This document shows, one piece after another, positions 44,236 through 55,927 of a DNA stretch of 64,000 nucleotides. Made by a program: the position numbers and the translations under genes. How positions within the stretch are numbered: position 1 is the first letter of the stretch; each line of letters starts with the position of its first letter. Origin of the DNA: Escherichia coli (GTDB taxonomy: Bacteria; Pseudomonadota; Gammaproteobacteria; Enterobacterales; Enterobacteriaceae); NCBI RefSeq assembly GCF_036507355.1, contig NZ_AP027877.1, one strand, 5' to 3'. The notes under the pieces were generated by a model, which had not been told where the DNA came from, searched no databases, and was given only the letters and a program-made list of their open reading frames with translations.

Positions 44236-44383
44236 TCATCTGATTTACAAAACACGCTAATTTGTCTTCCATAAACCAAGGCGATTAAGATTTATACATA
44301 ATGCGCTGCATTGAGGAATTCCCTGAATGTGACGCAAATCACTTCAAAGAGTGAGCAACAGTCAGTATCATCATGTGAGTTAA

Positions 44384-44417
44384 ACCCTCGCCGCCTGACG
44401 GTGAGGGTTTTCTTTTG
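44384..44417 (+). terminator. hairpin in rna-rnk intergenic region
   Basis: aaccctcgccgcctgacggtgagggttttcttttg. Confidence 0.4.
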
Positions 44418-44464
44418 GGTATGTTTATCTGCGACACTCGCAGTACCGACGACATGGAGTAAAA

Positions 44465-44875
44465 ATGTCCAGACCAACTATCATCATTAACGACCTGGAT
44501 GCCGAACGCATCGATATTCTGCTGGAGCAACCCGCCTATGCTGGTTTGCCAATCGCCGACGCGTTAAACGCAGAGTTGGATCGCGCCCAAATGTGTTCGC
44601 CAGAAGAGATGCCACACGACGTGGTGACAATGAACAGCCGGGTTAAATTCCGCAATCTTAGCGATGGCGAAGTGCGTGTGCGCACGTTGGTGTATCCGGC
44701 AAAAATGACCGATAGCAATACTCAGCTTTCCGTTATGGCTCCGGTAGGTGCCGCACTGCTGGGGCTGCGCGTTGGCGATTCCATTCACTGGGAACTTCCG
44801 GGCGGCGTTGCAACCCACCTTGAAGTGCTGGAACTCGAATACCAGCCAGAAGCTGCTGGCGACTATCTGCTTTAA
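44465..44875 (+). CDS. rnk: regulator of nucleoside diphosphate kinase (GreA/GreB-like)
   Basis: 136 aa [23 protein letters not shown]. Confidence 0.88.
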
Positions 44876-45012
44876 TCCCATCTGCACAAGCGATAACTCG
44901 CTTTGCCCAGAGGATGCACTCGCATCCTCTTTACGCAAAATCAGCAATTTTTCCTGGTTCTCACTGTTCACTTTTGCTGCAAAATTATTCCGTTTCGTTT
45001 GTGGGAATAACC

Positions 45013-45102
45013 ATGGCAGAAGCATTTTACATCCTGATAGGATTTCTGATTATGGCGGCGATTATCGTCATGGCTGTCCTTTACCTCGAAAACCACTCCT
45101 GA
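45013..45102 (+). CDS. candidate 29-aa hydrophobic small protein (MAEAFYILIGFLIMAAIIVMAVLYLENHS)
   Basis: Internal ATG of ORF 44914..45102 preceded by gggaataacc; single predicted TM helix; unverified. Confidence 0.3.
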   Translation: MAEAFYILIGFLIMAAIIVMAVLYLENHS

Positions 45103-45105
45103 CGA

Positions 45106-46344
45106 TCATATTGTTCCCCCCGGCATCGCATTCACCAGACCTGAAACCGCCTTCTGCGCCGCCTCTGCGCTTTGTGCACCGGGTACCAGAATCACCTTAC
45201 GGCACTCCTCTTCACGTTTTTCGAAAATCTCATATCCCCGGGCGGCCTCTTCAAACGGCATATAGTGGGTAACAATTTCTTCTGGTTTCAGTAATCCTTT
45301 CTCAATTAACGGTAATAATTCTCCCAGCCATGCGTGAACGTGGGTCTGTCCCATTTTAAACGTCAACCCTTTATCAAAGGCGTCGCCAAACAGGAAACCG
45401 TGAATAAATCCAGCGTAGACGCCCGGTACGCTAACAATGCCGCCACGCCTGACCGCCGCAATACACTGACGCAACGCTTTACCGCTGCTGCCCTCCAGTT
45501 TCAGGTTAGTCAGCACCGTTTCCGTGGTGCTGCCTTTCGCTTCAAAACCGACGGCGTCTATTACTGCATCCACGCCCCGGTGACCTGCCGTTTGTTCAAT
45601 AATTGACTGTGCCGGATCGCTATCTTCATCGAAATTAATCGGGATCGCGCCGTAGCGGTCAGCGGCGAAACGCAAGCGGTAGGGATGATGATCAACAACA
45701 AAAATCTGTTCCGCACCGAGCAACCGTGCACAGGCGATTGTCAACAATCCCACAGGACCAGCACCATAGACAGCAACGCTTGAACTTTGTTGGATCTGCG
45801 CATTTTTTGCTGCCTGCCATGCCGTTGGCAGAATATCAGAAAGGAAAAGGGCTTTATCATCTGAAAGCAAAGGCGGTACTTTAAACGGCCCCACATTCCC
45901 TTTAGGGACGCGGACATATTCCGCCTGCCCACCAGGAACGCCACCATACAGGTGACTATAACCAAACAATGCCGCGGGAGCTGGTATCTGTTTTTTATTG
46001 AGCGCAGCGCCTTTACCCGCATTGGTATTTTCGCAGGCGGCATATTACTGCATTCGACAGAAAAAACAGTCGCCACAAGCAATGACAAACGGAATTACCA
46101 CCCGGTCGCCTTTTTGCAAATTTTTTACGTCCTTTCCGGTTTCAACTACTTCCCCCATAAATTCATGACCAAAAATATCGCCATGTTTAACCTGGGGTAT
46201 TTTGCCTCGATAAAGATGGAGGTCAGAGCCACAGATCGCCGTTGCCGTAATACGCAGAATAATATCATCTGCCTGTTCAACGCCCGGATCGGGAACATTT
46301 TCTACCTGAACGTTATATGGGCCGTGATAAGTCAATGCTTTCAT
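45106..46344 (-). pseudogene. ybdR: Zn-dependent alcohol dehydrogenase-like oxidoreductase interrupted by an in-frame TAA at codon 100
   Basis: N-terminal ORF 46045..46344 (99 aa, ends ...[10 protein letters not shown]) and C-terminal ORF 45106..45969 are in the same frame; region between them translates without further stops ([32 protein letters not shown]); total 1239 bp. Confidence 0.8.
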
Positions 46345-54838: not shown

Positions 54839-55927
54839 ATGCCTCACAATCCTATCCGCGTGGTCGTCGGCCCGGCTAACTACTTTTCACATCCAGGAAG
54901 TTTCAATCACCTGCACGATTTTTTCACTGATGAACAACTTTCTCGCGCGGTGTGGATCTACGGCGAACGCGCCATTGCTGCGGCGCAAACCAAACTTCCG
55001 CCAGCGTTTGGACTTCCAGGGGCAAAGCATATTTTGTTTCGTGGTCATTGCAGCGAAAGCGATGTACAGCAACTGGCGGCTGAGTCCGATGACGATCGCA
55101 GCGTGGTGATTGGCGTCGGCGGCGGCGCACTACTCGACACCGCGAAAGCCCTCGCCCGCCGTCTCGGTCTGCCATTTGTTGCCGCTCCAACGATCGCCGC
55201 CACCTGCGCCGCCTGGACACCGCTCTCCGTCTGGTATAACGATGCCGGACAGGCGCTGCATTATGAGATTTTCGACGACGCCAATTTTATGGTGCTGGTG
55301 GAACCAGAGATTATCCTCAATGCGCCGCAACAATATCTGCTGGCGGGGATCGGTGACACGCTGGCGAAATGGTATGAAGCGGTGGTGCTGGCTCCGCAAC
55401 CAGAAACGTTGCCGCTAACCGTGCGACTGGGGATCAATAATGCGCAGGCCATTCGCGACGTCTTGTTAAACAGTAGCGAACAGGCGCTGAGCGATCAGCA
55501 AAATCAACAGTTAACGCAATCATTTTGCGATGTGGTGGATGCTATTATTGCTGGTGGTGGGATGGTCGGTGGTCTGGGCGATCGTTTTACGCGTGTGGCG
55601 GCGGCTCATGCCGTGCATAACGGTCTGACCGTGCTGCCGCAAACCGAGAAGTTTCTTCACGGCACCAAAGTCGCCTACGGAATTCTGGTGCAAAGCGCCT
55701 TGCTGGGTCAGGATGATGTTCTGGCGCAATTAACTGGAGCGTATCAGCGTTTTCATCTGCCGACTACGCTGGCGGAGCTGGAAGTGGATATCAATAATCA
55801 GGCGGAGATCGACAAAGTGATTGCCCACACCTTGCGCCCGGTGGAGTCCATTCATTACCTGCCAGTCACGCTGACACCAGATACGTTGCGTGCAGCGTTC
55901 GAAAAAGTGGAATCGTTTAAAGCCTGA
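54839..55927 (+). CDS. ybdH: iron-containing alcohol/hydroxycarboxylate dehydrogenase (glycerol dehydrogenase-like)
   Basis: 362 aa; GVGGGALLDTAKA nucleotide-binding motif. Confidence 0.88.
   Translation: MPHNPIRVVVGPANYFSHPGSFNHLHDFFTDEQLSRAVWIYGERAIAAAQTKLPPAFGLPGAKHILFRGHCSESDVQQLAAESDDDRSVVIGVGGGALLDTAKALARRLGLPFVAAPTIAATCAAWTPLSVWYNDAGQALHYEIFDDANFMVLVEPEIILNAPQQYLLAGIGDTLAKWYEAVVLAPQPETLPLTVRLGINNAQAIRDVLLNSSEQALSDQQNQQLTQSFCDVVDAIIAGGGMVGGLGDRFTRVAAAHAVHNGLTVLPQTEKFLHGTKVAYGILVQSALLGQDDVLAQLTGAYQRFHLPTTLAELEVDINNQAEIDKVIAHTLRPVESIHYLPVTLTPDTLRAAFEKVESFKA

Follow-up and report, generated by a model that had tools for sequence, protein, structure and literature searches.

Several short single-pass proteins, including MgrB and SafA (both acting on PhoQ) and MzrA (acting on EnvZ), are described as tuning sensor histidine kinases (PMC11429745, PMC12648545). 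The 34-residue protein YoaI has been shown to bind EnvZ in a two-hybrid assay and to raise EnvZ-OmpR output (Vellappan et al. 2025, PMC11429745). Residues Ser26, Val27 and Glu31 of YoaI are invariant, and the substitutions E31A and E31Q lead to the loss of both EnvZ binding and EnvZ activation, with membrane levels of the protein unaffected. YoaI is predicted to be inserted with its N-terminus outside and its C-terminus inside the cell, and the growth delay that accompanies its overexpression is an artefact separate from its role on EnvZ (PMC11429745). Another small protein, YldA, is not mentioned in the YoaI study (PMC11429745). It was reported in a survey in which 80 short ORFs of E. coli MG1655 were fused on the chromosome, at their 3' ends, to the SPA tag; 36 of the encoded proteins were seen by immunoblot, YldA included, and Table 1 of that work places yldA, with 29 amino acids, between ybdR and rnk (VanOrsdel et al. 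2018, PMC6001520). The detection of YldA was made in LB. A later Ribo-seq study of E. coli under acid stress counts yldA among the "previously known sORFs"; the change of yldA was not significant, and its blank adjusted p-values suggest low counts. There is no entry for yldA in one supplementary file of PMC10100675.

The stretch analysed here (hereafter the window) comprises 64,000 nucleotides of an E. coli chromosome and includes the gene series citT-rna-rnk-yldA-ybdR-uspG-ahpF (Table 1). A first-pass annotation of the window had proposed an unannotated candidate for a small single-helix membrane protein in an otherwise gene-free gap between rnk and ybdR. The frame itself was read accurately, as the sequence gggaataacc at 45003-45012 directly precedes the ATG at 45013-45015 and a frame of 29 codons follows. 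The gene is not new: RefSeq annotates precisely this ORF as "yldA: small membrane protein YldA" (WP_000796528.1), the protein has NCBIfam and Pfam models of its own, and only by disregarding the current annotation can the gap be called gene-free. Tagging with an epitope at the native locus, which had been suggested as a check, had already been performed in MG1655 with the SPA tag and gave a positive result (PMC6001520), so that the proposal was correct but known. yldA is thus a gene that has been named and annotated, and its product was detected in 2018.

Table 1. Features of the yldA region; positions refer to the window unless another locus is given
Feature	Position	Strand	Description
rnk leader RNA	44311..44419	+	Known element, Rfam RF01771; 124.9 bits vs gathering score 50
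rnk	44465..44875	+	Upstream same-strand neighbour of yldA
rnk 3' hairpin	44910..44932	+	GAGGATGC-ACTC-GCATCCTC, then TTT; RNA fold prediction
K-12 type segment	44937..46547		1611 bp; yldA and ybdR; YldA MAEAFYILIGFLIMAAIIVMAVLYLENHS; K-12, EC1515; 3600 complete genomes
Shine-Dalgarno-like GGGA	45003..45006	+	Weak, putative; 6 nt upstream of the yldA ATG
yldA coding sequence	45013..45102	+	29 codons and TGA at 45100-45102; translation MAEAFYILIGFLIMAAIIVMAVLYLENHS
ybdR	45106..46344	-	Zinc-dependent alcohol dehydrogenase; converges on yldA; codon 100 is an in-frame TAA (46045-46047)
Alternative segment	L002 5088-5363		276 bp; yldA only; YldA MSEALGITAFYIFIAAIIVAAVLYLEQRW; ST131, APEC O1, ATCC 25922-like; 1818 complete genomes

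The translated product is identical at 29 of 29 positions to the MG1655 YldA given in Table 1 of PMC6001520, and it matches both the NCBIfam equivalog model NF041476 (57.9 bits, cut-off 45) and the Pfam model PF23689, YldA-like (73.6 bits, cut-off 27), over positions 1-29 of 29 in each case. The flanking genes rnk and ybdR and their orientation are also those of MG1655, and the sole difference is the premature stop codon in ybdR of the window strain. The best 19-residue Kyte-Doolittle mean of YldA is 2.97, which places it at the top of the 350 ATG-initiated ORFs of 20-50 amino acids in the 64-kb window, all others of which remain below 2.5. From this hydropathy, YldA is predicted to be a 29-residue single-pass inner-membrane protein. 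The initial description of the ORF as encoding a single-helix small membrane protein is therefore supported by the hydropathy, by the published SPA tagging and by the conservation of the frame across genera. Taken together, it can be stated with high confidence that the ORF is yldA, that it is real and protein-coding, and that it belongs to the YldA/YoaI family.

The conservation of yldA was assessed at both the protein and the DNA level. Among 1.84 billion representative proteins, a profile search returned 49 matches at E <= 1e-3, many of which are exactly 29 amino acids long, and the degenerate motif [AV][IV][IL][VI]xAVLYLE, scanned at the DNA level over 100,044 GTDB species genomes, was found at 35 loci. 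The enterobacterial loci, 29 of the 35, belong to Escherichia, Enterobacter, Citrobacter, Lelliottia, Kosakonia, Phytobacter, Huaxiibacter, Pseudenterobacter and unnamed Enterobacteriaceae, and all 29 carry an ATG exactly 15 codons 5' of the motif and a stop codon exactly 3 codons past its glutamate; the start, the length of 29 codons and the stop are thus kept in every relative found, which bears out the conservation of the frame that had been named as a further check. The six remaining loci (in Butyricicoccus, Prevotella, Opitutaceae, Ruminiclostridium, Tannerella and Bacillus) were rejected as chance matches, being located inside long ORFs and lacking the ATG. A GGGGA sequence is present in yldA orthologues at the site that corresponds to the Shine-Dalgarno-like GGGA of the window.

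Variation among yldA sequences falls mostly at third codon positions. In 30 sequences, the entropy at codon positions 1, 2 and 3 amounts to 0.61, 0.47 and 1.14 bits, respectively, and the mean pN/pS is 0.36 over all codons and 0.47 outside the searched motif. The other two forward frames are open in only 3 and 9 of the 30 loci. The family consensus is MxExLxIxLxFLIxAAIIVxAVLYLExHW, in which E3, I7 and the stretch A21-E26 are invariant, and all of these residues (E3, I7 and A21-V22-L23-Y24-L25-E26) are found in YldA of the window. The 29-codon yldA frame is under purifying selection across the Enterobacteriaceae.

Two overlapping reading frames were considered and set aside. The 62-aa ORF starting at ATG 44914, which is annotated in some databases, has an in-frame upstream extension that ranges from 31 to 160 codons among species, and its start falls within the stem of the rnk hairpin. 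An antisense ORF of 42 amino acids at 44968-45096 is not matched by conserved openness of any reverse frame, the three being open in 20, 2 and 0 of the 30 loci. In addition, the UniRef label "Protein MgtR", carried by the YldA of Citrobacter koseri (P0054), was not supported by any of the family searches performed here.

The relationship of YldA to YoaI was established by several comparisons. Against the YoaI equivalog model NF041475, YldA of the window scores 22.5 bits (E 8.7e-5), under the cut-off of 45, which indicates homology and not membership of the YoaI family; the E-values of YldA sequences range from 8.7e-5 to 6e-8, all under the cut-off, and that of YoaI against the YldA model is 0.035. 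The reciprocal HMM matches share one register, in which position p of YldA corresponds to position p+5 of YoaI. Alignment of 15 YldA with 6 YoaI sequences by hhalign gave a probability of 97.6 % and an E-value of 3.4e-12 over 28 columns. The profile-profile score ranges from 32 to 47, and its value with the bridging sequence omitted is 32.3 (probability 95 %). In comparison, 200 column-shuffled YoaI profiles yielded a mean of 8.8 (sd 2.1, maximum 16.4) and the reversed profile yielded 10.3, and these far lower scores argue that the match is not explained by composition alone. The bridging sequence, MNDPAFFDTLCITAVFLVIASALVMSVLYLERRW, is a YoaI according to NCBIfam (68.9 bits), is encoded in yoaI synteny between a tRNA_edit (yeaK-like) and a DUF441 (yeaL-like) gene, and ends in SVLYLERRW as in YldA. 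The databases already join the two families, since the precomputed Pfam PF23689.3 "YldA-like" annotation tags YoaI proteins, although the older PF23689 model misses E. coli YoaI. On the basis of these sequence comparisons, YldA and YoaI are homologous, the homology extending over the full length of YldA, and since both genes coexist in E. coli, the two are paralogues.

In the +5 register, E3, V22, L23 and E26 of YldA correspond to E8, Val27, L28 and Glu31 of YoaI, and Val22 and Glu26 are invariant in 30 of 30 YldA species sequences. The two proteins differ in that YldA lacks the five N-terminal residues of YoaI and has Ala21 in place of the invariant Ser26. They also differ in their genomic setting, as yldA does not share the yoaI synteny between yeaK and yeaL and is found next to rnk, between rnk and ybdR or uspG. 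The resemblance of YldA to the MgrB-PhoQ, SafA-PhoQ and MzrA-EnvZ pairs is one of general logic, that of a short single-pass protein tuning a histidine kinase. MgrB, SafA and MzrA are larger (48-127 amino acids), some of them act via periplasmic parts, and Pfam and NCBIfam scans of YldA gave no match to their families at E <= 1.

The invariable neighbour of yldA is rnk, which is located directly 5' on the same strand, at a distance of about 140 nt, in all 28 of the 29 enterobacterial loci that are long enough, spanning eight named genera. The weight that the first-pass annotation had given to ybdR was accordingly misplaced, as ybdR is missing from 15 of 27 informative loci and from about one third of E. 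coli genomes. In 29 of 29 aligned enterobacterial sequences, the stems of the hairpin at the 3' side of rnk are invariant and its loop is variable; no covariation was seen. The hairpin is probably a weak intrinsic terminator between rnk and yldA. Since only three T follow the stem, the terminator scan made no call at this site, and read-through into yldA is plausible. Its sequence conservation is unusually strict for a simple terminator. The scan for terminators and promoters detected no promoter between rnk and yldA, and a cross-species sigma-70 scan 5' of yldA gave no convincing conserved promoter, the only matches being weak (8/12) and confined to 7 of 29 sequences. No known RNA element was found over yldA in an Rfam search. 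Judging from the sequence of the interval, co-transcription of rnk and yldA is plausible, and expression of yldA would probably depend either on read-through past the weak hairpin or on a dedicated weak promoter.

On its other side, yldA is convergent with ybdR, as the initial annotation had stated; ybdR lies on the minus strand, and the stop codons of the two genes are 3 nt apart. ybdR is present in 12 enterobacterial loci, always convergent and with its stop 3-10 nt away from that of yldA. A further 15 loci lack it, and there uspG is directly next to yldA; two loci are too short to show either arrangement. In Enterobacter asburiae TN152 (L037, about 1057-1225), a remnant of the ybdR 3' end persists after yldA, which indicates that ybdR has been lost recurrently in the Enterobacteriaceae. 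At codon 100 of ybdR, the window has TAA, compared with CAA in K-12-like and EC1515 genomes. Owing to this in-frame stop, ybdR is a pseudogene in the window strain; the adjacent yldA is intact.

A megablast comparison of the region with 5426 complete E. coli genomes revealed two forms of the locus, and one yldA allele or the other is present in 5418 of them. Both alleles comprise 29 codons, yet they are identical at only 51 of 90 nucleotides (57 %) and have 15 of 29 residues in common; pS between them is 0.71, which is saturated, and blastn detects no similarity. That the length of 29 codons and 15 of the 29 residues have been kept while synonymous sites are saturated adds to the evidence for the importance of the peptide. 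As far as the rnk hairpin, the flanks of the two types are 98 % identical, compared with only 92 % identity at the start of uspG. The alternative allele matches that of E. albertii at 85 of 90 nucleotides and that of Escherichia sp. MOD1-EC7003 at 86 of 90, and its protein is nearly identical to YldA of E. marmotae. Citrobacter yldA (62 of 90 nucleotides, 22 of 29 amino acids) resembles the K-12-type allele more closely than the other E. coli allele does. From these comparisons we infer the alternative allele to be the native one of Escherichia; the K-12-type yldA-ybdR segment would have been acquired by recombination from an unsampled enterobacterial lineage.

A chimeric 67-aa ORF on a metagenome scaffold (P0046, L038 2703-2906) was rejected as a real gene, its junction being present in none of the 5426 complete E. 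coli genomes. In this ORF, codons 1-19 of the alternative allele are fused to yldA of the K-12 type together with its upstream region, with the junction at a short CAGCAATT microhomology. The chimera probably reflects either an error of assembly or a rare recombination event.

By analogy with YoaI, YldA may cross the inner membrane once and modulate a sensor kinase, a reading that we favour only tentatively and to which we assign less than even confidence. In such a mechanism, the helix would be inserted with its N-terminus outside and its C-terminus in the cytoplasm. A cytoplasmic C-terminus is suggested by the ending E-R-H/R-W of most orthologues, in line with the positive-inside tendency, and by the same orientation predicted for YoaI. 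Among YldA orthologues, a tail with no basic residue occurs only in the K-12-type form (ENHS), whose orientation is less certain. The invariant AVLYLE stretch would be located at the cytoplasmic end of the helix, with Glu26 aligned with Glu31 of YoaI, and might bind and tune a larger inner-membrane protein, for which a sensor histidine kinase such as EnvZ would be the most plausible, if tentative, candidate. The position of YldA under the YoaI equivalog cut-off (22.5 vs 45 bits) implies that partner specificity may differ.

A more elaborate form of this mechanism, which we consider rather unlikely, would make YldA a second YoaI-type connector that is co-expressed with rnk and binds EnvZ or another histidine kinase via AVLYLE and Glu26, the two alleles rewiring different lineages. 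The alleles differ in the outer halves of their helices and in their tails (ENHS vs EQRW), and if this proposal were true, such diverged alleles would give E. coli lineages (K-12 vs ST131 and APEC O1) a different wiring of a signalling step. As a lead, the locus is of modest value, in that YoaI, the only characterised member of the family, links two-component systems via a single glutamate; this glutamate is kept by YldA in every species examined, which provides a testable hypothesis based on YoaI. Further handles are the strict linkage to rnk and the allele split within E. coli, which is as deep as that between genera.

Small membrane proteins that act on membrane partners other than kinases include AcrZ, KdpF, CydX, MgtS and PmrR, and YldA could similarly be an accessory subunit or a regulator of a transporter, an oxidase or a lipid enzyme. 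It shares the anatomy of AcrZ-type proteins, with one helix and short polar ends, and yldA is among the transcripts raised by NaF, alongside genes for envelope and osmotic stress. The invariance of the AVLYLE block points to a specific partner, of whichever kind. We nevertheless consider a non-kinase partner somewhat doubtful, given that YoaI, the one homologue to have been characterised, exerts its effect on a sensor kinase via a glutamate that YldA retains, and that the one constant neighbour of yldA is rnk and not a transporter or enzyme gene. This constancy could itself be taken to mean that YldA, as the product of the second gene of an rnk-yldA operon, works with Rnk, as its tether, its modulator or a component of the same pathway. 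The same-strand adjacency in every informative locus of the eight genera, next to a variable ybdR, and the read-through expected from a hairpin followed by three T would fit such a partnership. Adjacency by itself is, however, no proof of common function, and the paralogue YoaI is encoded in an unrelated neighbourhood. Rnk carries Pfam domains of the GreA/GreB family and is a soluble protein with no known membrane role, and we regard a partnership with YldA as improbable.

Two further explanations draw on the convergence with ybdR and appear highly unlikely. According to one of them, yldA would matter only in cis, as a convergent "excludon" that lowers ybdR expression, and the peptide would be unimportant. 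The transcripts must overlap, as only 3-10 nt lie between the stops in all loci that carry both genes, and ExcludonFinder lists ybdR-yldA as a convergent excludon with overlapping transcription in MG1655 RNA-seq data. However, in the 15 species loci and the 1818 E. coli genomes devoid of ybdR, yldA persists with its amino-acid constraint, and it is intact next to the ybdR pseudogene of the window; its conservation where ybdR is missing largely refutes a purely cis-acting role. The other explanation, which we rate as equally remote, views YldA as a peptide akin to type I toxins, whose overproduction damages the membrane and which is restrained by an antisense transcript that overlaps its gene. 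The short, hydrophobic nature of the peptide, the ybdR mRNA as an antisense partner and the growth delay on overexpression of the homologue would be compatible with this view. Against it, yldA belongs to the core genes, being present once and in conserved synteny in almost every E. coli and across many genera; the Rfam search showed neither a dedicated antisense RNA nor any other element over it, ybdR is often absent, and the growth delay caused by YoaI is the overexpression artefact noted above. Modulation of a sensor kinase, with the tentativeness already expressed, remains the reading that we prefer for YldA.

The second most hydrophobic short ATG-initiated ORF of the window, at 55530-55628 on the plus strand, encodes MWWMLLLLVVGWSVVWAIVLRVWRRLMPCITV; as it is located out of frame within a 362-aa ORF (54839-55927), it is most likely a chance occurrence.
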